Shown here piece after piece: positions 9,026-23,467 of a stretch of DNA of 24,000 nt. The stretch's first letter is position 1; every line of letters starts with the position of its first letter. The notes beneath the pieces are model-generated. The model made no database searches. It saw nothing but the letters and a program-made list of their open reading frames with translations, and had not been told where the DNA came from. The DNA lies in contig NZ_QGLP01000005.1 of assembly GCF_003202915.1 (NCBI RefSeq), forward strand, positions 326,721-350,720. The letters run 5' to 3'. The position numbers and the translations under genes were made by a program. Origin of the DNA: Gilliamella apicola. GTDB taxonomy: Bacteria; Pseudomonadota; Gammaproteobacteria; Enterobacterales; Orbaceae.

Positions 9026-10432
9026 ATAACGTGTCAGCATCAACAACATCATCTTCAACTGCTGGTTTTCGGGTAAAGTGAAAAATCGTAGCAATAATAA
9101 ATGCTCCGATGAACATATCAATCACATACCACAATGCACCTTTGGTTACAGCATCAAGTGTAACTAAACCACCAAATGCAACCAAGGAATCAATACTATT
9201 AATCATACCTAGCATACCCACAACTGCTATACCTACAACGATAGCGATAATAACTCGTTACGGATCTTTAATGGCGAATGGAATCGCGACTTCAGTACTA
9301 ACTGCTAAAGATAAAAAGAACGCAGTGATACCAAACTGTTTTTCTTCTTTGGTATTTTTAGAACGTGATACCAGTAAAGAGGATATTGCTAATCCTAAAA
9401 GAGGAATTGCACAGCACATACGGAGCTCGCCATTAGGACCATAAACACTTTCTGCCATAGCTGCTAACGTAAAGACGGTGGCAGCTTTACTACAAGGTCC
9501 ACCCATATCAATCGCAGCAAGCACACTGATTCCTATACCTAAAAATGCCGCATTAACTTCTGACATGACTTTTAAAGTTTTTACCATTACTTTTACAAAC
9601 CAATCAAGGGGATATGACAAATCTTAAATATAAATAGGCGTCATGACCAGTAATGTTACTGTTGGAATAATCATCACCGGCATAACCGAAGCAATAACCG
9701 GATGGAATTTAACGGTTTTAAACCATTTAACAAAATAGCCAATAAGGACACTGAAAATCATTGTACCAATAAAACCAGTAGATACATGATTACTGCCAAT
9801 TGGATTATTTACTACATTTCCCATAATAAACGCTGGTGCCAAGGGGGCATTACCACCAATAGAGTAAGCCATATAAGCCGCAAGCACTGGCACCATCATT
9901 GCGAAGCCGTAGAAAGCCACTTGTTGCAAATTGGCAAAGAATTGATTGCTTGGTAAAATAGCTTTTCCTACCACATGTCCAGTCATTAAAACGATTGAGA
10001 GAAGAATACCGGAAGCAATGATAGCCAGTAAAAATTTACTGATACCAGTATTTAACGATCTAAATATCTCTTTACCAATACTCTCTTTTACTTCTTTTGG
10101 GGATGATAAGGCTTCGGCATTATTAAAAATGTTAGCTGTATTTTTAACCGCTTCACTAGTGCTAACCTTAATCACCTTTTTAAAAGGTTCTAACAGTTCA
10201 GCATTATCGATTGAAATATCTGTCGCTAACAAAATTACATCAGCTCTTTTCAAATCTTTCTCAGTTAATACATTATCAATTCCAGCTGCTCCTTGGGTTT
10301 CAATCTTACAATCCCATCCTCACTGTTTAGCTTCATTTTCAATTTTTTGTTTAGCAATATAAGTATGGCCATTTCGGCAGAACAGGCACATATAGCAACA
10401 ATCTTTTTATTTTTTAAGGATTCTTTACTCAT
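9024..10432 (-). pseudogene. PTS fructose-family EIIBC component, disrupted (1 frameshift + 3 in-frame stops)
   Basis: Four ORF fragments together read as a Fru-type EIIB (KKIVAICACSAEMA/HTYIAKQ...GWDCKIETQGAAGIDNVLTEKDLKRADVILLATD) followed by an EIIC (AIDMGGPCSKAA, EVAIPFAIKDP*RVI...). Lesions are a -1 frameshift near 10367/10368, in-frame TGA at 10320-10322, in-frame TAA at 9624-9626, and in-frame TAA at 9258-9260 (DP*RVI where relatives have DPLRVI). All fragments downstream of the frameshift share one frame. Confidence 0.8.
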
Positions 10433-12625: not shown

Positions 12626-12656
12626 AATCCCGTCGACCTTTGGTCGACGGGATTTT
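12626..12656. terminator. Bidirectional rho-independent terminator between the convergent permease and HPr genes
   Basis: aatcccgtcgacc (12626-12638), ttt loop, ggtcgacgggatt (12642-12654): a perfect 13-bp stem. It is flanked by aaaa on the left and tttt on the right. Confidence 0.85.
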
Positions 12657-12699: not shown

Positions 12700-12963
12700 T
12701 TATTCACCAAAGCCAGTAGCAAATAATTCGCGAATTTCATCCATTGCTGCTTGTTCATCTTCACCATCACAGATGATTTCAACAGTTGAACCACCTTTAA
12801 CACCAGCTCCAAGTAATCCCATCATGCTTTTTAATTTAATGGCTTTATCGTTATAAACAAGTTCAATTGATGATTTATAACGGCCAGCTAATTTAACAAG
12901 CGTTGTTACCGGGCGTGCATGTAAACCAGTTGCATTTTTTACTACCATTTGCTCTTTTAACAT
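12700..12963 (-). CDS. HPr-family phosphocarrier protein
   Basis: 87 aa. Has NATGLHARP (His-15 site), KLKSMMGLLGAG (Ser-46 region) and EDEQAAMDEIRELF. AAGGA SD is present. No ptsI or crr gene is adjacent. Confidence 0.9.
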   Translation of the reverse strand: MLKEQMVVKNATGLHARPVTTLVKLAGRYKSSIELVYNDKAIKLKSMMGLLGAGVKGGSTVEIICDGEDEQAAMDEIRELFATGFGE

Positions 12964-13109
12964 ATTATAGTCCTTACTTATATCTAATGTTAATACAATA
13001 CCCGTATTTATATCATAAATTCATTTTTTTTGCTCTTTTTTAGCATTAATTTTTAAAATTTATTCATATCGCACTGTTTTTTAATAACTATCGATTAATA
13101 ATGCTAAAA

Positions 13110-14045
13110 CTAGTCCACCCAAAAATATCTCACTACATGAAAAAATATTGGTGCAGCAAAGCAGATAGAATCGAAGCGATCGAGTATACCACCATGGCCA
13201 TCGATAAGCCTTCCCCAATCTTTTACCCCTCGGTCACGTTTAATGGCTGACATCACTAATCCCCCCAGAAAGCCCAAAAGTGTAATCATTAATGAAATTA
13301 ATCCCGATTGCAGAAAAGTAAAAGGGGTGATCCAACACATGCACGCTCCAATAAAACTGGCAGATAAAAGGCCACCAATGAAACCTTCAATCGTTTTTGA
13401 TGGTGAGATATTCGGACTGATTTTATGTTTACCAAACAATTTACCAAAAACATATTGCAACACATCTGATAATTGAACGATTAACACCAAATAAGCAATT
13501 AACAACAAATTACGACCTTGATAATTTTCGATATCCAACACTAACAACGCCGGTACACATGAAATACAATAAACCGTAATCATCAATCCCCATTGCACAT
13601 CGGCTATTCTTTCTAAAAAATTACGAGTTGAAATCGTGGCGAATATCGCAAGGAACAAAAAGGCATACACTGGAATAAAAATACTGAATAAACCGTACCA
13701 CGCATAGGCGACTAAAATATATTGCGTTGGTAGAGCAATACCAAAAGCAAAAATCAGCACGCAATAATCGTAGCGATTGATCGGCGTTAAAATGAGAAAT
13801 TCACGCAATGCCACACCTGAAATAACAAAAAATAAAAAGATCACTGTCAGTTGCCCAAACCAAAAAGCAACCCCAATAATGGCAACCATTACCCACCATG
13901 CATTTATCCGAGTATTTAAATTATCGATAACACTATTGGGTGATTTACAACGAAATTTTAAAATTTGGCCAATTATTGTTGCGACTAACAAAAACAGGCC
14001 TATGCCCAAAAACAATAAACACGTATCATATTGATATTGGGACAT
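13110..14045 (-). CDS. ynbB: Phosphatidate cytidylyltransferase paralogue (CdsA family, YnbB-like)
   Basis: Track ORF trimmed to MSQYQYDTCLL... (ATG 14043-14045 preceded by AGGAGA). Multi-TM protein with the CDP-diglyceride synthase signature SAIKRDRGVKDWGRLIDGHGGILDRFDS. At 311 aa it compares with about 298 aa recalled for E. coli YnbB. Confidence 0.82.
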   Translation of the reverse strand: MSQYQYDTCLLFLGIGLFLLVATIIGQILKFRCKSPNSVIDNLNTRINAWWVMVAIIGVAFWFGQLTVIFLFFVISGVALREFLILTPINRYDYCVLIFAFGIALPTQYILVAYAWYGLFSIFIPVYAFLFLAIFATISTRNFLERIADVQWGLMITVYCISCVPALLVLDIENYQGRNLLLIAYLVLIVQLSDVLQYVFGKLFGKHKISPNISPSKTIEGFIGGLLSASFIGACMCWITPFTFLQSGLISLMITLLGFLGGLVMSAIKRDRGVKDWGRLIDGHGGILDRFDSICFAAPIFFHVVRYFWVD

Positions 14046-14085
14046 TTTAATTCTCCTAGGTGCAGTATTACTAGTTAATAACGGA

Positions 14086-14559
14086 TTAATTATTGATAAT
14101 AACATTAATAACCGCAAAAATGATTAAACAATTTTGCGCTAAAAATAAGATTATCTGCCTTTTAAACAACGATAAAACCCCTTTTTGGCGATCTGCAATG
14201 GTTCTTGAGGTAAATTGACTAGGCCTAATTAATTTTAAATTGGCTAACGCCCTATCCATCGCTAATAGTTCATCATACAAATGATCCACATGGTTAGTTA
14301 AGTGTTTAAACAATTTTCTATCAAACTCGATTCTTATAGCGTAATACTTACTTATTAAACCGAGAATAAAGATCATCAAACAAATAATGGTTAATGGTAT
14401 TGCCCAAGAACTCAGCAAGGCAACAAAAACAACTAACAACGATAATAGCATTGAAAAAATATCAATCTGTTTACTTAGCGACAAGAAACTACAAAACGTC
14501 ACTAAATCTATTTTAGTCATAGTATTTGTTGATGACCGGTTATTGTTACTACTTAACAT
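14086..14559 (-). CDS. Hypothetical small membrane protein (no family recognised)
   Basis: 157-aa ORF. Its ATG overlaps the ynbD stop (ATGTTAA). Has a hydrophobic hairpin (IFSMLLSLLVVFVALLSSWAIPLTIICLMIFILGLI), a charged helical middle and a hydrophobic C-terminus. The start could instead be the internal MTKIDLV. Confidence 0.55.
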   Translation of the reverse strand: MLSSNNNRSSTNTMTKIDLVTFCSFLSLSKQIDIFSMLLSLLVVFVALLSSWAIPLTIICLMIFILGLISKYYAIRIEFDRKLFKHLTNHVDHLYDELLAMDRALANLKLIRPSQFTSRTIADRQKGVLSLFKRQIILFLAQNCLIIFAVINVIINN

Positions 14560-15869
14560 GTCGTTGTCCCATCTTTAATGTTTGCCAACCAGTTAGCTAA
14601 AATTAGTTGTTGCTGATTAGAAATCACAATAGAATGCCGATGTTTTTTTACTTTATTGATAGCTTGTTGCAAATTGTTGACTTTTTTTGTCCATAACAAC
14701 CAAGCAACAACAGCGGTTGCACTTCTGGAATATCCCAAACCACAACAAACGAGTAATTTACCTTGTTGCCGATATTGTTCAATAATTTGCGCAGCTTGCT
14801 GACACTCCTTTTGCGAAAGTGGTGTCATATCTAAAACTGGAATGAGCGTATAAGTGCCTTTAAAATGACCAATTGGCAACTCGGCACACAAATCAACTAC
14901 TGATATAAAATGATGTTGGTTTAATGCGCTAGTTGACGGAATACGACCTAAATAGACGTCATCGGCTATCAAATCATCGGCTTGATGTCTAATTGTCCAT
15001 ATTCGCGAATTTAGCCACATAATAATAAAATACGGTAAATAAAGCAGATTTACGGCTAACTTAAAACGACCATTTTGCTGTTTTTGAAAACCTGAGGCAC
15101 CAAAAAATAGATAATTAACGGCAACCAATACCAAAGCGCCAGCCAACCATAATAACCAAAGCGCCCATCCAGAGAGATAGATAGCCATAGTAAGGGATAA
15201 CAGAGATAAGACCAGATAGACGATTGTCCAATGATAATTCAATGGCCGATATATTGATGGTGTCAGCCTATTATCAGGCCATAACCAAATGCACAAACAG
15301 CCTACCCATAATCCAGTCGGAATATCAAAAAAATGATGCTGCCATGTAGTTAAAACTGAAAGTGCAATTAAAAAACACCAAAAATGTAATATATAACGCC
15401 CTAATCGCCGAAAATATTGAGCATAAAATTGCCATAAAATAACTAATAATGTGATGTGTAATGAAGGAGCTTGATTGAAAGGCTTATCAAATCCCATTAA
15501 AATATCAAACAGTAAACCTAAAAATCCATTCAAAACGGGACGGTCAAAATAGAATTTAAGCGGAAAAAGTAAGAAGCAAATAATACAAACCATTTGCGCG
15601 GTTAATAGTCGCAAACCAAGAGTTTTTAGAGATTGCCAGGAAGATGTCAATAAAATAGCAAGACCATACATCAGATCGATAGACCAATAAGGCACAATCG
15701 TCCATGGCCAAAGTGGAATAGAATGTTCCCAACTAAAAAATAGACTCGGTACATCCTGACGTTGCGAAGTTAGCCAGTTAGCAAAATTATAACTGGCAAA
15801 AAAGAACAAAGACAAACCGGCTAACCACACACATTTATAAACATTTAGACGGTTGAATAGTTTTGGCAT
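14553..15869 (-). CDS. ynbD: Membrane PAP2-like domain fused to a dual-specificity (CX5R) phosphatase domain, YnbD-like
   Basis: Track ORF trimmed to MPKLFNRL... (ATG 15867-15869, 2 nt after the ynbC TGA). The N-terminal part has about 8 TM segments with PAP2-like motifs (APSLH, WQHHFFDIPTG). The C-terminal part has VCCGLGYSRS (CX5R). At 438 aa it compares with about 430 aa recalled for E. coli YnbD. Confidence 0.8.
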   Translation of the reverse strand: MPKLFNRLNVYKCVWLAGLSLFFFASYNFANWLTSQRQDVPSLFFSWEHSIPLWPWTIVPYWSIDLMYGLAILLTSSWQSLKTLGLRLLTAQMVCIICFLLFPLKFYFDRPVLNGFLGLLFDILMGFDKPFNQAPSLHITLLVILWQFYAQYFRRLGRYILHFWCFLIALSVLTTWQHHFFDIPTGLWVGCLCIWLWPDNRLTPSIYRPLNYHWTIVYLVLSLLSLTMAIYLSGWALWLLWLAGALVLVAVNYLFFGASGFQKQQNGRFKLAVNLLYLPYFIIMWLNSRIWTIRHQADDLIADDVYLGRIPSTSALNQHHFISVVDLCAELPIGHFKGTYTLIPVLDMTPLSQKECQQAAQIIEQYRQQGKLLVCCGLGYSRSATAVVAWLLWTKKVNNLQQAINKVKKHRHSIVISNQQQLILANWLANIKDGTTTC

Positions 15870-15871
15870 AA

Positions 15872-17620
15872 TCAATGCGAATTTCGTTGAGCGACAGAAA
15901 CCGTAAAAATGCCCCACTGATCGACCAACATAGTAACTTTGCTAAATCCCGCTTCCTCAACTAACTGATCCATCTCAAGTTGCGTTCGTCGTCGCATAAT
16001 CCACGGTTGTCCTTGCCGATGTGAAGTTAACGCTCTGGCAATAAATTCTAATTGCGGATGCCAAGGTTGATTAGTATAAATTAGATACCCACCATGTGGA
16101 ATCACATCGGCCAATCCTAATAAAGACTGGCGCAACAATTGATTATCACCAAATAATTCATATAATCCTGATACTACCGCTAAATTAGGTTTAGGTGATA
16201 ATTGTGAAAGCTCTTCACGACTAAAAGCATCGCCTTTTTCAAAACGGACAATATCACTCAACCCTTGTTGCGCAATCAGCGCTTGCCCATCACGGATATT
16301 AATATCACTATAATCTCGTAATAAAACCGAATTGGGTTTATGGGCTATTTGATTAATGGTTTCTAAAATATAGCGACCATGTCCTGCAGCAATATCAACA
16401 ATGTTAACTTGCTCAGATTGCTGTAACTGTTCAATGGTCTGTTTTAATAGTTGCTCTAGATGATTCTTGCGTTGTCGAATTCCTCGCCAACCAATTGATT
16501 GTAAATAGAGATAATCAAAAAAACGCCCAAGTTTAGAGGTTCCAGACGGTTCATTTCGATAGACATAATCAAGCGTACTGCCAGAATCGAAACCAGTTTC
16601 AAAACCCAGCTTAATACCATCCGACATTTTACTAGCATATTTTAAGGTTGATCTAACGAATTTCCAATACCATGGTTTGATCCAACCTGATGGAGGTAAA
16701 GCTAATCTATCGGTTTCCATTCGAGTATAACCAACCCGGTCGGCATTAGTTAACGGCGGAATATTCGGTTGATTCGCAAAACAGCCTTGAATAAACCGTC
16801 GAGCTTTAGCAATAGCCATATTTCGATCTTTCTCACCAAAGGTATCATGATAAAATTTTGGTAAAATATGGAACTCTTTTTGAATTGTTCCTAAATTATC
16901 ATAAAAGGCTTTTTGTGGTTTGCGGCGCACAACAAAATCAGAGCCAGAAACTAATAACTGAGTGGGTACAGTAATAGCATTGGCATCTTTAACAATACGA
17001 TCCGCTACCGCATAGAGGTCAAGTAGTAATCTGACGGAAATTGGTCGCGTAATTAAAGGATCTTTATTAAAAGAATCAGCGCGATTAGCATCATGGGTTA
17101 ACAAATTCGGTTTAACATAACTATTTACAAAGAAATTGCCTTTCAAGTTATACAATAAATTAAGTCCAGGTATTGCTAATGGAACATATAATTTAACGCT
17201 AAATGCTGGCGAACCTAACACTAATGCACGAACATTTGGCACATAATCATGTACCCAAGCGCTGGCAATTACCGCGCCAACACTTTGAGCAATAATGGCA
17301 ATATCTTGCATATTTAATGAATATTCTTCAATGATATGTTCAATAAAGCAATTAGCATCTTTAATTAGCGTAGCAAAATTAGGGGCATCACCGCGTTCAC
17401 CCTCCGATTGACCATTTCCTCTCGCATCCCATGCAAAAATATGAAAATCCGGCAACTCAAGTTCATCGGCTAAATGCGCCACTCGTCCAGAATGCTCATG
17501 ACCTCGATGAAAAAGCACAATTGCTTTTGAAGATGATTGGCTAGTGACGGCAGGCCAATAACGATAAAATAATTGACAACCATCATGGCTAATAAACATT
17601 TTTTGTTGTTCTTCTCGCAT
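15872..17620 (-). CDS. ynbC: Alpha/beta-hydrolase (lysophospholipase-like) fused to a class I SAM-dependent methyltransferase, YnbC-like
   Basis: 582 aa. The N-terminal half has VLFHRGHEHSGR and IIAQSVGA (nucleophile elbow). The C-terminal half has VDIAAGHGRY (SAM motif I) and LLRDYS. Compares with about 585 aa recalled for E. coli YnbC. Confidence 0.83.
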   Translation of the reverse strand: MREEQQKMFISHDGCQLFYRYWPAVTSQSSSKAIVLFHRGHEHSGRVAHLADELELPDFHIFAWDARGNGQSEGERGDAPNFATLIKDANCFIEHIIEEYSLNMQDIAIIAQSVGAVIASAWVHDYVPNVRALVLGSPAFSVKLYVPLAIPGLNLLYNLKGNFFVNSYVKPNLLTHDANRADSFNKDPLITRPISVRLLLDLYAVADRIVKDANAITVPTQLLVSGSDFVVRRKPQKAFYDNLGTIQKEFHILPKFYHDTFGEKDRNMAIAKARRFIQGCFANQPNIPPLTNADRVGYTRMETDRLALPPSGWIKPWYWKFVRSTLKYASKMSDGIKLGFETGFDSGSTLDYVYRNEPSGTSKLGRFFDYLYLQSIGWRGIRQRKNHLEQLLKQTIEQLQQSEQVNIVDIAAGHGRYILETINQIAHKPNSVLLRDYSDINIRDGQALIAQQGLSDIVRFEKGDAFSREELSQLSPKPNLAVVSGLYELFGDNQLLRQSLLGLADVIPHGGYLIYTNQPWHPQLEFIARALTSHRQGQPWIMRRRTQLEMDQLVEEAGFSKVTMLVDQWGIFTVSVAQRNSH

Positions 17621-17642
17621 AGCTTATTCCTTTTATTTCCTT

Positions 17643-18260
17643 TTATTCCTTTTTATTTTTTGATTCTTGTAATCCTTTTTTAACTCTATTAACTACCGTA
17701 ATTAATAGCAAAAAGGTAATAAGCCACAGTAGTGTATTAAGCCAATCAAGTGGCAACAAAGAGGTAGCGATACCTAAACTTATTAGGCTAAAAACAAAAG
17801 CCCGATCGCTTTTACCCATGGGGCCATCATAACGCCGTGAACTACCAATCATCATGCCGAGTACACCTGCATACTCAGTTAAGAATGATAACAAAATGAC
17901 TATAATCACTAGATTAACATGGATCTGATTTAATTGAGTAAAAATTAATAGTAATGCAGAATCTGAAACCACATCACAGATCTCATTTAAATACGCACCA
18001 AGATTCGATTTTTGGTTATATTCTCGGGCTAGCATGCCATCAATAGCATTGAGTGCCATCCGAATAAACATCCAGATCGGTATTAAGCCAAACAACCATT
18101 GATGATCAGCAAAATAGCCAACTAACAAAGCAATTAATATCGAACCTGCACAAGCGGTTAGTGTGACCTGATTCGCGGTAATATGTGATGCATATAACGA
18201 TGTTACATAAGGACGAAGCAGTGCTTGAAAGCGCGATTTTAATTGATAGATTGAAAACAC
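17643..18260 (-). CDS. ynbA: CDP-alcohol phosphatidyltransferase family protein, YnbA-like
   Basis: 205 aa with a GTG start preceded by AAGGAAGGA. The motif NAIDGMLAREYNQKSNLGAYLNEICDVVSD matches the variant CDP-OH-P-transferase motif I recall for E. coli YnbA (NALDGMLARE...GDVISD). Multi-TM. Confidence 0.83.
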   Translation of the reverse strand: MFSIYQLKSRFQALLRPYVTSLYASHITANQVTLTACAGSILIALLVGYFADHQWLFGLIPIWMFIRMALNAIDGMLAREYNQKSNLGAYLNEICDVVSDSALLLIFTQLNQIHVNLVIIVILLSFLTEYAGVLGMMIGSSRRYDGPMGKSDRAFVFSLISLGIATSLLPLDWLNTLLWLITFLLLITVVNRVKKGLQESKNKKE

Positions 18261-18288
18261 GGTCCTTCCTTTTATATGTTATATGCAA

Positions 18289-21200
18289 TTAAACAATACG
18301 TTGTAACTGGGCATACTTTAATGAACTTACCATAAAATGCAAACGGTTGAGAACATTAACCTCACCAGCACCATCATCAAAATCCAAATAGAGCAGATTC
18401 AGTTTTGGATTAAGATCGCGCATGCGCTTCTCCACTCCTTTAGACACAACATGATTAGCAATACAACCAAATGGCTGCAAGCTAATGACATTATTAATGC
18501 CATGCTCAGCAAAGGTCATAATACCTGCAGGTATTAACCAACCTTCACCATATTGATTCGCCAAATTCAGGATTTCTTGTGCTTTTTTCGCCATATCACG
18601 AATATTGTGGAATGGTTGATAATTTTTAAAACCAGACAAAATCTGATTAGTTTGCTCAATATACTTTTGTGCCACCTTCTCAAAAAAATGTACAAAGTAA
18701 GTCACAAAACTTTTGTTAACAATATAATTATCAACATTACTATCATAGTTAACAAAACACTGAGCAAAAAACTCAATCATTGGTGGAATTATTGGCTCAA
18801 TCCCCTGTTCAACAAGCCAGTCAACACTATGTTGATTACCAAAACTGTTATATTTAACGTAAATTTCACCAACAATCCCAATTTGCGGGCAATCCTTATT
18901 TAACGTCTCGATTTGATTAAAATGATCGACCGCTTCTTTTAACAACGCAAAGATCGCCTTTTTGCCTTTGTGTTGATTGATAAGATGTTGTAACTTTCTA
19001 ATATAAAGCTCTTTCAATTGGTTAGCTTGTTGTTTAAATTTGGCTCTAGGCGCAATCGAGTAGAACATCTTCGAAATCGAATCAGCAAATAACATCGCAA
19101 AAAACGTAGTTGGTAAAGTTTTTAGCCAATTAATTTTAAAACCTGGTTGCTCAATTTCATTAATATTACCGGTACTGAGCGACACGATAGGTATATCTTC
19201 GAAACCATTACTAATCATGGCTTTCTTAATCAAAGAAAGATAACTACTCGCTCGACACTGTCCACCCGTTTGAGTAATGCCGATAGCCACCTCATCACGT
19301 TGATATTTACCTGAATTAAGCGCCTTAATTATGTCACCTACAATAATGGTCGCTGGATAGCAAATCTCATTGTTACAATACTTTAATCCCCATTCGACCG
19401 AACTTTTATCTGGTTTTGGCAAAGTCTCAAGCTTATAGCCTGACAAAGCAAAAATTGGCGGTAATAATGGTGAATAAAAATCGGAGATATAAGGTGCTAA
19501 AATAGTCCGTCGCTGTTTATCTTGTTTAGCAAAAATAGCCGTCTTTTTACGCTCAACCACATTTAATGGTAGTTGGTGATTCATACGGATTGACTCAATA
19601 ATCGAACGTAAACGCAAACGCACCGAACCCGTTGCGGTGATCTCATCGACTCGAATTATTGTACAGGTCTTATCTTTTGACTCTAAAATCGCCTTACACT
19701 CATCGGTCACAATCGCATCAGGACCGCAACCAAATGAATTAAGTTGTACGAACTGAATATTTTTGGGTTGCTCAGCAACAAAACTCGCAGCAGCATATAA
19801 ACGGTTTGGATAACTCCATTGCGAACAGATTTGCAACTCAGGGGATAATTGATTAATCACTCCTAATACTGAATCCTCGGTTATCACATCACAACCTAAG
19901 GCATTTAAAATCTCTGGGGTTTTATGATTGATTAAACTATCGCTATGGTAAGGACGACCAGCCAAAATGAACACATATCGCCCCGTCTCTTTAGCATTAT
20001 TCAACACCTCAACTGCCTTGTTGTACAGCGAGTGTTTATATTCAGCTTGAGCAGCTAATGCATCAGAAAATGCTTGATTAGCTATCTTTTCAGTAATACC
20101 AAGCGAAGTTAAATAATTAATACAGCCCTTTTTCAATAATTTCTGATCACTAAAATTGATTACCGGATAATCCAACGGTACATTGTATTTGGTCTGCGGA
20201 TTGATAGCACTATTTACCACCTCAGCATAACTACTCACAATTGGGCAGTTATAACTATTAACGGCATTATCAAAATGGTCAGCCTCAAACACCACCATCG
20301 GCATAAAAATACGATCAACCTTCTGTTCGATCAGTTCCATAATATGCCCATGTACCAGTTTGGCAGGAAAACAGATACTATCCGACATCACCGTACCTGC
20401 CCCTTTCTCGTAGATATCGTGGGTAGAATATGGCGAAAGTGTCACATTAATTCCACTATTGGTTAACAAGGTATGCCAGAACGGAAAATTTTCATATTGA
20501 CCTAAAACACGAGGAATACCGATATTAAGCTTAGATTCAGCATTATGGATATTGGTTCGATCAAATAACAACGCATTTTTATAGTCAAACATATTAAATG
20601 CATTTTTATCTTGATATTGATTATTACTTAAAAAGCGTTCGCATTTATTACCAGAATAATAACGCTGACCATTAGCAAAACGATAAATCATAATATCGCA
20701 TTTATTTTCACATCCCTTACAGCGTGAAGGCTTGGCCTTATTATCTTCGGCTTTTTGTAGATTATCTAAACCAATAAATTGTGATGGAGTTTGATCTTGC
20801 TGATAGTGATTTTTCGCCACTAATGCCGCACCATAAGCACCCATCAACTCAGGAATATTAGAACTGGCAATCTGTGCACCAGTCAACTGCTCTAAAGCTC
20901 GAAATACCGCCGGATTCTTAAAAGTTCCGCCTTGCACCACAATATGATCGCCCAATTTACGCATATCATGTAATTTAAGTACCTTATGAATAGCATTTTT
21001 AATCACCGAAAAAGCTAGACCCGCTGAAATATCGCCCATAGTGGCATTTTCACGCAGAGCCTGTTTCACTTTAGAGTTCATAAACACTGTACAGCGTGTG
21101 CCCAAATCACAAGGATTGTTAGATTTACACGCTGCATCAGCAAAATCGATGGTATTGGAATTAAGGGATTTAGCAAAAGTCTCAATAAACGAACCACAAC

Positions 21201-22563
21201 CCGATGAACAAGCTTCATTTAACTCAATATGATTTACCACGCCATTAGCGATAAAAATAGCCTTCATATCTTGACCGCCAATATCCATGATAAAACTCAC
21301 CTTAGGATCGATATGTTTAGCCGCAGCAAAGTGAGCCATCGTCTCAACTAAACCATCATCGATAGCAAAAGCAGCTTTCAACAACTCCTCACCATAACCG
21401 GTAACTCCACTGCGAGCAATCACAATGTCTTTACCAGATGCCGCAATCTCATCCTTAAGTACGGTTAAACCTTTAATAAGTGCGGTAATTGAGTGACCGT
21501 TATTTGGTGCATAATAAGTAAAAAGCAGTTCATCATCTTCACTAGTCAAGGTAATTTTAGTGGTAGTTGAACCACTGTCGATACCTAAATAAGCATTTTG
21601 CTTTTGATAAGCACTTAAAGCTAAGCGAGGAATTTCAATATATTTGCGTTTTTGTTGCCAATCAGCAAAAGATAACGACTGATTAAATAATGGTTTTAAG
21701 CGAAAAGATTGATTAACTTGAATTTTAGTTGACGCATTTAACCTATCGATAAAATCATTTAGCTTGAGCTCACTACGCTCAATAGCATGAATTGCCGCCC
21801 CCCAAGCTGACAATAAAGTAGGATGCTCGGTGGTAACTATCTGATCTTCATTTAACTTTAGTGTTTCTAAAGCCGCTCTGCCTAACGTTGGAATAAACGA
21901 AAACGGTCCGCCAATCAACATTACTTTGGGAACAATATCATAACCACGCGCTAGCGTATTAACCAATTGAATACAAACCGCATGTAATACAGAATAAGCA
22001 ATATTTTCTTTGGAGACATTACGGCTAATTAAATTTTGCACATCGGTTTTGGCAAACACGCCACAGCGTGAAGCGATTGGATAGAGTTTATCATGTTTAG
22101 TTGCCAGCAGATCAAACTCCTGCACAGGGGTATTAAGCAAGGTTGCCATCTGATCTATAAAGGCACCTGTGCCACCGGCACAACTACCATTCATACGAAT
22201 ATCTGGTGGACGATCAGGAAAAAAGAAGATCATCTTACTATCTTCACCGCCAATATCGATTAACGTTCTAACCTCTGGATATTTGCGCTGCACCACTTCC
22301 GATGCGGCGACCACCTCTTGAATAAAGGCGATATCGGCTTTTTCCGAAATACCCATCCCAGCAGAACCAGTTACTTTCACGGATAACGTAACATCATCAC
22401 CAGTTTGCTGTTTAATTTCATCTAAAAGGGATAAAACGGTAGGTACAATATGGGTGTTATGACGAACATAATTGGTATAAATAAAATTATCCTGTTCGTC
22501 AAGCACGACACACTTAGCTGTCGTAGAACCAACATCCAATCCAAGTCTATACATTTTTGGCAT
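18289..22563 (-). CDS. Giant fusion of two BcrAD/BadFG (HgdC-type) activase ATPase modules with 2-hydroxyacyl-CoA-dehydratase-like/DUF2229-like modules; PlsA-PlsR (anaerobic plasmalogen synthase)-like
   Basis: 1424-aa uninterrupted ORF. Module 1 reads LGLDVGSTTAKCVV...DIGGEDSK...GSCAGGTGAFIDQ...ASRCGVFAKTDV. Module 2 reads LGIDSGSTTTKITL...DIGGQDMK...EACSSGCGSFIE...GTRCTVFMNSKV. A Cys cluster RCKGCENKCD...NKCERF follows (about 20638-20724). Two HAD-like regions come next (IGIPRVLGQYENFPFW...; ...NEICYPATIIVGD...TGGQCRASSY...). ORF confidence is high. The plasmalogen-synthase assignment is only moderate. Confidence 0.9.
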   Translation of the reverse strand: MPKMYRLGLDVGSTTAKCVVLDEQDNFIYTNYVRHNTHIVPTVLSLLDEIKQQTGDDVTLSVKVTGSAGMGISEKADIAFIQEVVAASEVVQRKYPEVRTLIDIGGEDSKMIFFFPDRPPDIRMNGSCAGGTGAFIDQMATLLNTPVQEFDLLATKHDKLYPIASRCGVFAKTDVQNLISRNVSKENIAYSVLHAVCIQLVNTLARGYDIVPKVMLIGGPFSFIPTLGRAALETLKLNEDQIVTTEHPTLLSAWGAAIHAIERSELKLNDFIDRLNASTKIQVNQSFRLKPLFNQSLSFADWQQKRKYIEIPRLALSAYQKQNAYLGIDSGSTTTKITLTSEDDELLFTYYAPNNGHSITALIKGLTVLKDEIAASGKDIVIARSGVTGYGEELLKAAFAIDDGLVETMAHFAAAKHIDPKVSFIMDIGGQDMKAIFIANGVVNHIELNEACSSGCGSFIETFAKSLNSNTIDFADAACKSNNPCDLGTRCTVFMNSKVKQALRENATMGDISAGLAFSVIKNAIHKVLKLHDMRKLGDHIVVQGGTFKNPAVFRALEQLTGAQIASSNIPELMGAYGAALVAKNHYQQDQTPSQFIGLDNLQKAEDNKAKPSRCKGCENKCDIMIYRFANGQRYYSGNKCERFLSNNQYQDKNAFNMFDYKNALLFDRTNIHNAESKLNIGIPRVLGQYENFPFWHTLLTNSGINVTLSPYSTHDIYEKGAGTVMSDSICFPAKLVHGHIMELIEQKVDRIFMPMVVFEADHFDNAVNSYNCPIVSSYAEVVNSAINPQTKYNVPLDYPVINFSDQKLLKKGCINYLTSLGITEKIANQAFSDALAAQAEYKHSLYNKAVEVLNNAKETGRYVFILAGRPYHSDSLINHKTPEILNALGCDVITEDSVLGVINQLSPELQICSQWSYPNRLYAAASFVAEQPKNIQFVQLNSFGCGPDAIVTDECKAILESKDKTCTIIRVDEITATGSVRLRLRSIIESIRMNHQLPLNVVERKKTAIFAKQDKQRRTILAPYISDFYSPLLPPIFALSGYKLETLPKPDKSSVEWGLKYCNNEICYPATIIVGDIIKALNSGKYQRDEVAIGITQTGGQCRASSYLSLIKKAMISNGFEDIPIVSLSTGNINEIEQPGFKINWLKTLPTTFFAMLFADSISKMFYSIAPRAKFKQQANQLKELYIRKLQHLINQHKGKKAIFALLKEAVDHFNQIETLNKDCPQIGIVGEIYVKYNSFGNQHSVDWLVEQGIEPIIPPMIEFFAQCFVNYDSNVDNYIVNKSFVTYFVHFFEKVAQKYIEQTNQILSGFKNYQPFHNIRDMAKKAQEILNLANQYGEGWLIPAGIMTFAEHGINNVISLQPFGCIANHVVSKGVEKRMRDLNPKLNLLYLDFDDGAGEVNVLNRLHFMVSSLKYAQLQRIV

Positions 22564-22647
22564 AACAAACTCACATTTTGCAAATTAGACTTAACCTATA
22601 AAAGGATCACAAAAATATAGAAATAATTATTATTGTTTGATGAAATT

Positions 22648-22653
22648 ATTATA
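22648..22653 (-). promoter_or_regulatory. Candidate -10 box (TATAAT) for the lipid operon
   Basis: The minus strand reads cgcTATAATaa, about 85 nt upstream of ATG 22563. No good -35 hexamer at 16-18 bp spacing (attaaa/gattaa). Confidence 0.3.
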
Positions 22654-22750
22654 GCGAAATCTTTCAAATTTTTAATCAATTTGTTTGGGAAATGACATTT
22701 TTGGATGTTTTTTAACTAACAGAAACTAAAGAAAATAACTCTTATTGGCA

Positions 22751-23467
22751 CTAATCCTGCGCCAAACCATGCTTAGCAATAGCGATCACATTCTTCAAAT
22801 CGACACCTTGGGTTTTTGCCGCAAAAATACAACCGCAATAGCATTGACGATAAACATCGTACTCCTTACAAAGCTCGATAGAACGCTTATAACCGTTATT
22901 CTTCTTAAAATCAGAAGGTAAATAATTAACGGAAAAAATCTCCTGTATCTCAAAACCAAGTTGGTTAATTTTTTGACTATTCTTTTTAGGACTCAGTGTT
23001 AATGCACTGGCAAAATAGTCAAAACCCAACTCCTGCGCCTTAATTGCAGCCAAATCTAAGCGCATCTTATAACAAAGATGACAACGCTCTCCACCTTCTG
23101 GCGCATCACGCAAATGCTCCACCTGCTTAATAAACTCAGCCGGTTGGTAAGGAGCTTCTAAAAACTGTACATGGTTATTGGTCTTTTGATTAAAGTCGGC
23201 AATAAACTTCTGCTGAACCTTACTGCGATATTCATATTCTACACGGGGGTGAATATTGGAATTAGCAAAATAAATCGTAATATCGGCATACTGCGCCAAA
23301 TACTCCAACACATAAGTACTACACGGGGCACAGCAACTATGAATTAACAATTTTGGCCGAGCCGACGCCAACTGCCAATCAGCAATTACCTCTTGCAAAA
23401 TCGAATCATAATTCACTTTATTATGTGGATTTAATTTTTCGAGAATATCTTTGGCATTGATTAACAT
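22751..23467 (-). CDS. queH: Epoxyqueuosine reductase QueH (DUF208 family)
   Basis: 238 aa. Has LLIHSCCAPCSTY, ERCHLCYKMRL and CYCGCIF cysteine motifs characteristic of QueH. Confidence 0.88.
   Translation of the reverse strand: MLINAKDILEKLNPHNKVNYDSILQEVIADWQLASARPKLLIHSCCAPCSTYVLEYLAQYADITIYFANSNIHPRVEYEYRSKVQQKFIADFNQKTNNHVQFLEAPYQPAEFIKQVEHLRDAPEGGERCHLCYKMRLDLAAIKAQELGFDYFASALTLSPKKNSQKINQLGFEIQEIFSVNYLPSDFKKNNGYKRSIELCKEYDVYRQCYCGCIFAAKTQGVDLKNVIAIAKHGLAQD

Follow-up and report, generated by a model that had tools for sequence, protein, structure and literature searches.

A predicted PlsA/Ger-family gene beside a ynb cluster in Gilliamella: probably a genus-specific juxtaposition of two separable lipid modules

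The locus and its gene order

The DNA considered here is a chromosomal stretch (NZ_QGLP01000005.1; 24,000 nt, called the window throughout) from Gilliamella apicola, a member of the Orbaceae that lives as a symbiont in the gut of honey bees, and the system in question is a run of six minus-strand open reading frames (ORFs) that spans 22563 to 13110. A gene for a large PlsA/Ger-type protein is followed by ynbA, ynbC, ynbD, orf157 and ynbB (Table 1). The original prediction, made from the letters of this DNA, had described the six same-strand ORFs as a single operon encoding every step of a private phospholipid pathway, which, if real, would assign a function to the ynb genes. All six are present where it placed them, and the junctions, when re-derived from the sequence, agree with its values: 28 nt from the PlsA-like stop codon to the ynbA GTG (with AAGGAAGGA ahead of the GTG), 22 nt between ynbA and ynbC, 2 nt between ynbC and ynbD (TGAttATG, with the ynbD ATG at 15869), an overlap of 7 nt (ATGTTAA) between ynbD and orf157, and 40 nt between orf157 and ynbB (with the ynbB ATG at 14045 after AGGAG). 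The longest ORF of ynbD, starting from a GTG at 15917, would run into ynbC, and the TTG listed for ynbB at 14117 is probably not its start.

Table 1. Genes and candidate transcription signals of the Gilliamella apicola locus (window coordinates)
Feature	Coordinates	Strand	Remarks
PlsA/Ger-family gene	18289..22563	-	1424 aa
ynbA, CDP-alcohol phosphatidyltransferase	17643..18260	-	205 aa, GTG start, Shine-Dalgarno sequence AAGGAAGGA
ynbC, alpha/beta hydrolase + S-adenosylmethionine (SAM) methyltransferase fusion	15872..17620	-	582 aa
ynbD, PAP2-like + dual-specificity (CX5R) phosphatase membrane protein	14553..15869	-	438 aa
orf157, small membrane protein	14086..14559	-	no family match
ynbB, CdsA-paralogue cytidylyltransferase	13110..14045	-	311 aa from ATG at 14045
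Promoter-like site TTAAAA-16-TATAAT, upstream of PlsA/Ger gene	22648..22675	-	10/12 consensus match only
queH (epoxyqueuosine reductase), upstream neighbour	22751..23467	-	PF02677
HPr-family phosphocarrier gene, downstream neighbour	12700..12963	-	PF00381, TIGR01003
Intrinsic-terminator-like bidirectional hairpin	12626..12654	.	13-bp stem, 8 GC pairs

Transcription signals and genomic setting

The spacer upstream of the PlsA/Ger gene (22564-22750) is 187 nt long with 23% GC, which confirms the AT-rich upstream region noted earlier. It carries a promoter-like site (Table 1), whose GCTATAAT -10 box recurs in all five Gilliamella loci with the PlsA-like gene; an FNR-type site (TTGAT-N4-ATCAA, with up to two mismatches allowed) was looked for in the same spacer and none was found. 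Inside the cluster, the terminator scan returned no minus-strand matches other than four with short stems (5-8 bp), all within coding sequence, and the terminator-like sites in total (8 found against 8.3 expected from shuffles) show no excess over chance. The lack of an internal hairpin-plus-T-run terminator, as originally reported, is thus borne out. No terminator directly follows ynbB; the first strong one 3' of the cluster is the hairpin at 12654-12626, which lies beyond the HPr gene and is common to a convergent amino-acid permease gene. The HPr gene, separated from ynbB by 146 nt of 20% GC (12964-13109), has a promoter-like site of its own (12993-12964, 11/12 match).

Considering the 28-nt spacer, the lack of above-chance internal terminators and the conserved -10 box, the PlsA/Ger gene and the ynb genes are probably co-transcribed in G. 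apicola from the conserved upstream promoter, and read-through from queH and into the HPr gene is possible as well. The single operon of the original prediction stands as far as the shared strand, the tight spacing and the missing terminator are concerned; its gene order recurs in four other Gilliamella loci, but neither in Gilliamella sp. Pra-s52 nor in any other genus examined. The wider neighbourhood is of a housekeeping character (hisA/F/IE, a LysR regulator, topA, matP, an amidohydrolase, phosphotransferase-system (PTS) EIIA, the amino-acid permease, HPr and queH). No compositional sign of horizontal transfer was detected, as all genes have 30-39% GC against 37% for the window.

The PlsA/Ger-type protein

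In the 1424-aa protein, Pfam recognises PF01869 (BcrAD_BadFG) twice (residues 6-258 and 326-583) together with PF09989 (DUF2229; 7e-76, residues 681-899, the whole profile being covered). The resulting layout comprises Act1 (~6-258), Act2 (~326-584), a Cys-rich linker, Red1 (DUF2229, 681-899) and Red2 (~900-1424). With HMMER, C452 and C491 of Act2 align to the cysteines at positions 127 and ~166 of the HgdC chain 1hux, which we take to be the [4Fe-4S] ligands of HgdC, and C128 and C167 of Act1 are their counterparts by internal repeat. Among 16 homologues these four cysteines never vary, and neither do C731, C773, C946, C1068, C1103 and C1367 in the C-terminal 700 residues. The linker joining Act2 to DUF2229 (modelled at low confidence, with a predicted local distance difference test score (pLDDT) of 44-59) also holds an invariant CxxCxxxC...C motif (RCKGCENKC...NKCE; C615/C618/C622/C641; window 20640-20720), which could bind an extra Fe-S cluster or form a zinc site.

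Sequence searching of the PDB yields only activator proteins or ATPase subunits (HgdC 1hux, HadI 4eht, MbdQ/MbdP 9gai and DCCP-R 7yyl); the search found no dehydratase subunit there, and PF06050 gave no match on residues 600-1424 even at E <= 10. An AlphaFold2 model of residues 600-1424 (pLDDT 78) was compared by Foldseek, and the best PDB folds were HadB/HadC (3o3m), BzdNO (8s02), MbdON (9g87) and DCCP (probability 1.00), at 9-14% identity and a TM score of 0.40-0.49 per half. In this model, the second reductase-like domain appears to have a very remote 2-hydroxyacyl-CoA dehydratase/benzoyl-CoA reductase (HAD/BCR) fold. The protein thus has the electron-injection logic and the fold of the BCR/HAD enzymes, but the similarity is so remote that it is not close kin of the amino-acid-fermentation dehydratases.

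The architecture Act1-Act2-Red1-Red2 is that reported for PlsA (PMC12838417), and Ger homologues of organisms confirmed to produce alkyl ethers have a conserved core made up of two copies of PF01869 followed by PF09989 ('BBD'; PMC13159169). Lone plsA genes of Enterococcus faecalis, Lactococcus cremoris and Bifidobacterium longum (4,248, 4,311 and 4,920 bp, respectively, the last one verified in Escherichia coli) lead to plasmalogens in E. coli without accessory genes (PMC12838417). Similarly, ger of Thermotoga maritima alone gives ether lipids in E. coli (PMC13159169), and PlsA/R homologues are reported for ~15% of Bacteroidota (PMC10191378). The 1424-aa protein is predicted to be a PlsA/Ger-family glycerolipid sn-1 ester reductase of the single-polypeptide 'plasmalogen synthase' type; as PlsA and Ger are inseparable by sequence and the verified members were compared by description, it is filed under PlsA/Ger. 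Architecture, cysteines and relatives all support the earlier choice of a PlsA/PlsR-type family over the amino-acid-fermentation dehydratases.

Its NCBI name ('acyl-CoA dehydratase activase-related protein'), the matches of its activase domains to HgdC, HadI and BCR subunits, and the best folds of its Red region (HadBC, BzdNO, MbdON and DCCP) would also suit an enzyme with a soluble substrate (a CoA-ester or another small molecule), be it an ATP-dependent dehydratase, a reductase or a reductase of the double-cubane type. Such an assignment is hardly credible in view of the remoteness of the Red similarity (9-14% identity, TM 0.40-0.49), the fused BBD architecture typical of PlsA/Ger (PMC13159169), and the fact that the fused-architecture members with a published function, in the literature searched, all reduce glycerolipid esters. 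Furthermore, the hallmarks of a fermentation dehydratase (PF06050 subunits, a separate activator, and CoA-transferase or fermentation genes nearby) were not found at this locus, where the neighbours are queH, the ynb genes and HPr.

With respect to its relatives, the protein is 96% identical to metagenome proteins, 86% to a protein of Gilliamella sp. wkB308, 73-96% to Orbaceae proteins and 52-66% to proteins of Bacteroidales, the nearest relatives outside Orbaceae. Since the closest non-Orbaceae homologues are from Bacteroidales and not from other Gammaproteobacteria, the comparison points to an old horizontal transfer of the PlsA-like gene between gut-associated lineages, and the drop in identity from 96% to 73% with taxonomic distance within Orbaceae is consistent with vertical descent after such a transfer. 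The protein is colinear from end to end with a 1616-aa protein of Parascardovia (33-37% identity), a genus of the Bifidobacteriaceae, to which B. longum with its verified plsA also belongs. For the reductase half, 629 cluster representatives were obtained at E <= 1e-30, in fused (~1400 aa) and split (~830 aa) forms; two look-ups of 20 representatives returned Parascardovia, Aminobacterium, Opitutales and anaerobic protists, with no Enterococcus or Clostridium perfringens among them. Full-length PlsA/Ger-type proteins are annotated in the anaerobic protists Barthelona sp. (P0343, 1415 aa) and Pelomyxa schiedti (P0387, 1622 aa), which are 28-30% identical to the window protein in the reductase half; this suggests that the anaerobic ether-lipid enzyme has been transferred into eukaryotes.

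The ynb genes and orf157

The identifications of ynbA, ynbB, ynbC and ynbD hold, as BLASTP against E. coli K-12 gives near full-length identities of 48% (YnbA), 36% (YnbB), 52% (YnbC) and 38% (YnbD) with the same domain composition. YnbA (PF01066) has the phosphatidylinositol-phosphate (PIP) synthases as its nearest characterised relatives, below the curated cut-offs (NCBIfam; PDB 6h53, 5d92), its score being 79 bits against a PIP-synthase family cut-off of 180 bits. Its motif at residues ~70-105, N-x2-D-G-x2-A-R-x8-G-x3-N-x3-D-x3-D, is alike in Gilliamella and E. coli (L008 3622-4227) and has Asn in place of the first and third canonical Asp, and these substitutions may signify altered metal binding or chemistry in the YnbA family. 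YnbC consists of a Hydrolase_4 serine hydrolase, with an AQSVG nucleophile elbow at residue 111, fused to Methyltransf_20 (Pfam), and an NCBI protein of G. apicola matches it at 100% identity. In YnbD, DSPc matches the C-terminus (2.7e-13) and the N-terminal PAP2/PAP2_C match is weak; CGLGYSR is found at residue 376, and PSLH (at 135) and QHHFFD (at ~177) provide a PAP2-like H/H/D set. YnbB matches PF01148 at 9e-66 and bears the CdsA signature SAIKRDRGVKDWGRLIDGHGG. It is 59-68% identical to the copies in the Pseudomonas, Labrys and Chitinasiproducens clusters, as compared to 36% for E. coli YnbB, a non-essential CdsA paralogue able to support synthesis of the glycolipid MPIase (PMC6362211).

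The product of orf157 has hydrophobic segments at ~26-77 and ~133-157 (by hydropathy) and no Pfam or NCBIfam match apart from noise at E > 0.04. In the ynb clusters of Gilliamella, Orbus and many Pseudomonas, a homologue is encoded at the corresponding place (27-45% identity; 27-40% for Pseudomonas), and these proteins share the motifs KYYALR..FD..LF and R..G.L.L.K.Q; judged by this conservation, orf157 is a real gene of the Pseudomonas-type ynb clusters. The literature searched contained neither the term ynbABCD or its variants, nor a characterisation of YnbA, YnbC or YnbD, nor any paper linking ynb genes with plsA, in agreement with the earlier statement that no link between ynb genes and a plasmalogen-type enzyme was known. 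The claim that every step of a lipid branch is encoded was overstated, since YnbA has no assigned alcohol substrate, nor YnbC and orf157 an assigned role.

Distribution of the two modules

The ynb genes were surveyed by a YnbC-alignment scan with one genome per species, and the DNA around the best 80 ynbC loci (up to 10 kb per side, with three loci having almost nothing upstream of ynbA) was searched with the window proteins. A PlsA-like neighbour was present in 4 of these 80 loci, all from Gilliamella (G. apis, wkB308, wkB108 and wkB112), and in none of the 75 non-Gilliamella loci within the fetched DNA. The latter comprise ~66 loci of Pseudomonas and close relatives, along with Labrys, Wohlfahrtiimonas and others. 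The order ynbA-ynbC-ynbD-orfX-ynbB (orfX being the orf157 family) is found in most of the Pseudomonas-type loci as well as in Labrys and Chitinasiproducens, although orfX was not detected in the clusters of the last two.

Apart from this shared order, the clusters vary in their membership. In Pseudomonas sp. BR20 (L047 13499-14119), a PlsC-like acyltransferase (PF01553, 206 aa) lies between orfX and ynbB; other Pseudomonas loci (L017-L088) have a similar-sized gap at this place, the domain scan having been made in BR20 alone. This acyltransferase is absent from the ynb clusters of Gilliamella, Orbus and E. coli. In Orbus wheelerorum (L089 9374-13510), ynbA-ynbC-ynbD-orfX adjoins nrdAB and there is no ynbB within 10 kb, and in Wohlfahrtiimonas ynbB is located upstream on the opposite strand. 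These two arrangements indicate a conserved core of ynbA-ynbC-ynbD with ynbB as an optional member; the small membrane protein and, in Pseudomonas, the acyltransferase would likewise be optional.

Seen from the other module, Orbus mooreae, O. wheelerorum, Zophobihabitans entericus and Utexia brackfieldae possess a PlsA-like gene (73-81% identical) without ynb neighbours. In these four Orbaceae a DEAD-box helicase gene adjoins it, with AhpC, a MiaB-like enzyme and MatE further out. A Prevotellaceae metagenome-assembled genome and two Bacteroidales metagenome loci carry the gene without lipid-gene neighbours, and no ynb genes stand beside a non-Gilliamella PlsA-like gene at any locus examined. 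The PlsA-ynb pairing was therefore found only in the genus Gilliamella, and so it offers no general explanation of ynb function. The ynb and PlsA-like modules are thus distributed independently, and it was within one genus that they became adjacent. The neighbourhood conservation that the original prediction had itself set as a test ends at the border of the genus, and even within it Gilliamella sp. Pra-s52 is without the gene at this site.

In Pra-s52 (L011 9364-9382), a mere 13 nt separate the stop codon of queH from the GTG of ynbA, and no PlsA-like gene exists at the site. A neighbour-joining tree of YnbA, YnbC and YnbD places this strain as one of four deep Gilliamella lineages, so the PlsA-like gene must have been acquired early in the history of the genus, or else Pra-s52 has lost it from this site. 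The spacer between the PlsA-like gene and ynbA ranges from 22 to 80 nt among Gilliamella (22-28 nt in G. apicola and G. apis), and an HPr gene is located 3' of ynbB in every Gilliamella locus examined. In wkB108 and wkB112, the spacer measures 78-80 nt and contains a hairpin with a 16-bp stem (L010 ~9320-9365; L012 ~9325-9365) that is absent in G. apicola and G. apis. As a terminator this hairpin was rejected, having no T-run after the stem and not being called by the scanner.

One alternative is that the adjacency has no functional meaning: by neutral rearrangement, a PlsA-like gene with its own promoter would have landed between queH and ynbA (or been deleted in Pra-s52), with the ynb genes being read through from the gene upstream. 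The 13-nt queH-ynbA gap of Pra-s52 implies that the ynb genes were already reliant on the transcription of an upstream gene. Furthermore, the PlsA-like gene has a different, conserved context (helicase/AhpC/MiaB-like/MatE) in the other Orbaceae genera examined, the length of the inter-module spacer differs between Gilliamella lineages (22 to 80 nt), and no gene shows a compositional anomaly. Nevertheless, the arrangement has persisted across lineages that are ~25% apart in Ynb protein sequence, and that both modules deal with membrane glycerolipids is unlikely to be coincidental, even if coincidences of this kind are not rare where a genome has 2.5-3 Mb. Neutrality is a plausible but unlikely account of the locus.

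The same evidence bears on the original view that all six genes form one pathway, in which the Ynb proteins assemble a private phospholipid and PlsA/Ger turns the sn-1 ester of specifically this lipid into a vinyl ether, so that the arrangement would reveal the function of the ynb genes. The close same-strand spacing without an internal terminator, the adjacency in G. apicola, G. apis, wkB308, wkB108 and wkB112, and the lipid-related domains of every product are compatible with it, and the missing PlsC-like acyltransferase of Gilliamella can be read as a swap of sn-1/sn-2 tailoring enzymes. However, the DNA fetched around the 75 non-Gilliamella ynbC loci, most of which are from aerobic Pseudomonas, is devoid of PlsA-like genes, E. 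coli has ynbABCD and lacks plsA (PMC12838417), and the ynb cluster of Pra-s52 is intact without a PlsA-like gene at the site. Conversely, other Orbaceae and Bacteroidales hold the PlsA-like gene without ynb neighbours, the characterised PlsA/Ger enzymes use the bulk lipids of their host (PMC12838417, PMC13159169), and in wkB108 and wkB112 the longer, hairpin-containing spacer intervenes between the modules. A single pathway that assigns ynb function is thus unsupported, as synteny is not conserved outside Gilliamella, and we regard it as quite unlikely.

A probable pair of separable lipid modules

The locus is best explained, and with moderate confidence, as a genus-specific and probably co-transcribed juxtaposition of two separable lipid modules. 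The first module (18289-22563) would be a self-sufficient PlsA/Ger enzyme acting on ordinary glycerophospholipids (phosphatidylethanolamine and phosphatidylglycerol). Its Act1/Act2 pseudo-dimer would share one [4Fe-4S] cluster held by C128, C167, C452 and C491, from which ATP hydrolysis would drive a low-potential electron into clusters of the HAD/BCR-fold domains Red1 and Red2. Under low oxygen, these domains would reduce the sn-1 ester carbonyl; subsequent dehydration would yield a vinyl ether (plasmalogen), or further reduction an alkyl ether. This chemistry is proposed from homology and from the published work on PlsA and Ger.

The second module (13110-18260) is a Pseudomonas-type cluster which, to go by its domains, would most likely make a minor lipid derived from CDP-diacylglycerol. 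YnbB would form CDP-diacylglycerol and the PIP-synthase-like YnbA would move the phosphatidyl group onto an alcohol, probably a phosphorylated one. YnbD (CX5R/PAP2-like) would then remove or transfer the head-group phosphate, YnbC would tailor the product by hydrolysis and/or methylation, and the orf157 product would serve as an accessory membrane subunit. While domains, residues, homology, spacing and distribution are matters of observation, all of the chemistry, co-transcription and any substrate relation between the modules are inferred. It is very unlikely, though conceivable, that PlsA/Ger and the Ynb proteins are co-expressed for one molecule, an ether or vinyl-ether Ynb lipid, and that PlsA/Ger stands in for the PlsC-like acyltransferase which the Pseudomonas-type clusters have.

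Several points weigh against two separable modules or against the activities proposed for them. The adjacency is kept in three of the four deep Gilliamella lineages; together with the membrane-lipid character of all the genes, this leaves room for selection for co-expression, or even for substrate channelling. Primary sequence does not separate PlsA from Ger (PMC13274423), hence the product of the first module may be either a vinyl ether or an alkyl ether, and the verified PlsA (Q835P9, Q8XL48/Q8XL47) and Ger (Tmari_0479) proteins were likened to it by their published descriptions. The literature searched contains no report of a plasmalogen or ether lipid in Gilliamella: the words Gilliamella and plasmalogen both occur once in one review, and an ether-lipid pathway is mentioned in one metabolomics paper. 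As for the second module, the Asn residues at two Asp positions of YnbA make its transferase chemistry less than certain.

Significance for Gilliamella and for the ynb genes

Activity of the PlsA/Ger gene would lead one to expect plasmalogens or alkyl-ether lipids, formed when oxygen is low, in Gilliamella and the other bee-gut symbionts among the Orbaceae. Such ether lipids, if made, might affect the tolerance of the membrane to stress and the signalling to the host within the gut of the bee. Many aerobic Proteobacteria have the ynb cluster, which therefore cannot need an oxygen-sensitive plasmalogen synthase for its function, and the juxtaposition in Gilliamella does not solve what that function is. 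Pra-s52 nevertheless provides a natural 'minus' strain at this locus. Should PlsA/Ger act on a Ynb product, Gilliamella would be the first tractable system for the product of the orphan ynb cluster.

Comparison with known systems

The PlsA/Ger enzyme family is known, and what is unusual here is its genus-restricted neighbourhood beside ynb. The Gilliamella protein resembles the single-gene PlsA enzymes of E. faecalis (EF1327/Q835P9), L. cremoris and B. longum in length (1415 and 1436 aa for the first two as calculated from the gene lengths, against 1424 aa), in the Act1-Act2-Red1-Red2 order, in the BCR/HAD-type cysteines and in belonging to a facultative or microaerophilic gut bacterium. Single-gene plsA is usually free-standing, whereas the Gilliamella gene has ynb genes 28 nt downstream. 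The E. faecalis gene is reported to have a TetR-type regulator upstream (PMC9702350), in place of which queH, and no TetR-type gene, precedes the Gilliamella gene. In C. perfringens, PlsA-PlsR is encoded by two genes (CPE1194/1195; Q8XL48/Q8XL47) instead of one.

The Ger proteins of T. maritima (Tmari_0479) and Desulfatibacillum alkenivorans have in common with the Gilliamella protein the core of two PF01869 domains and PF09989, and an anaerobic ester-to-ether chemistry on host lipids is proposed likewise for the latter. Ger differs in its interleaved small PF06050/PF09989 segments (BBDHDDH), the Gilliamella protein having no PF06050 match at E <= 10. The product of Ger would be an alkyl ether, not a vinyl ether. 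With HgdC/HgdAB, HadI/HadBC and the class I benzoyl-CoA reductases, the protein shares ATP-driven electron injection, the Red fold and, residue for residue, the activase cysteines. Unlike HgdAB, HadBC and BCR, it is one fused chain with Red domains that are at most 14% identical, and its proposed substrate is a membrane lipid ester instead of a CoA thioester.

The pairing of YnbA with YnbD is similar to that of PIP synthase with PIP phosphatase, or of PgsA with PTPMT1, where phosphatidyl transfer to a phosphorylated alcohol is followed by dephosphorylation. Unlike the PIP pathways, the window encodes no inositol-phosphate synthase, and YnbA scores far below the family cut-offs. E. coli K-12 ynbABCD (b1408-b1411) provides homologues of all four proteins with identical domain compositions, although its order is A-B-C-D against A-C-D-orf157-B in Gilliamella, which adds the conserved small membrane protein and has a preceding PlsA/Ger gene that E. 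coli lacks. The Pseudomonas-type clusters possess a PlsC-like acyltransferase (PF01553) and no PlsA/Ger gene, the reverse of the situation in Gilliamella; they match the Gilliamella cluster in gene order, orientation and orfX family, with YnbA-D 45-68% identical.

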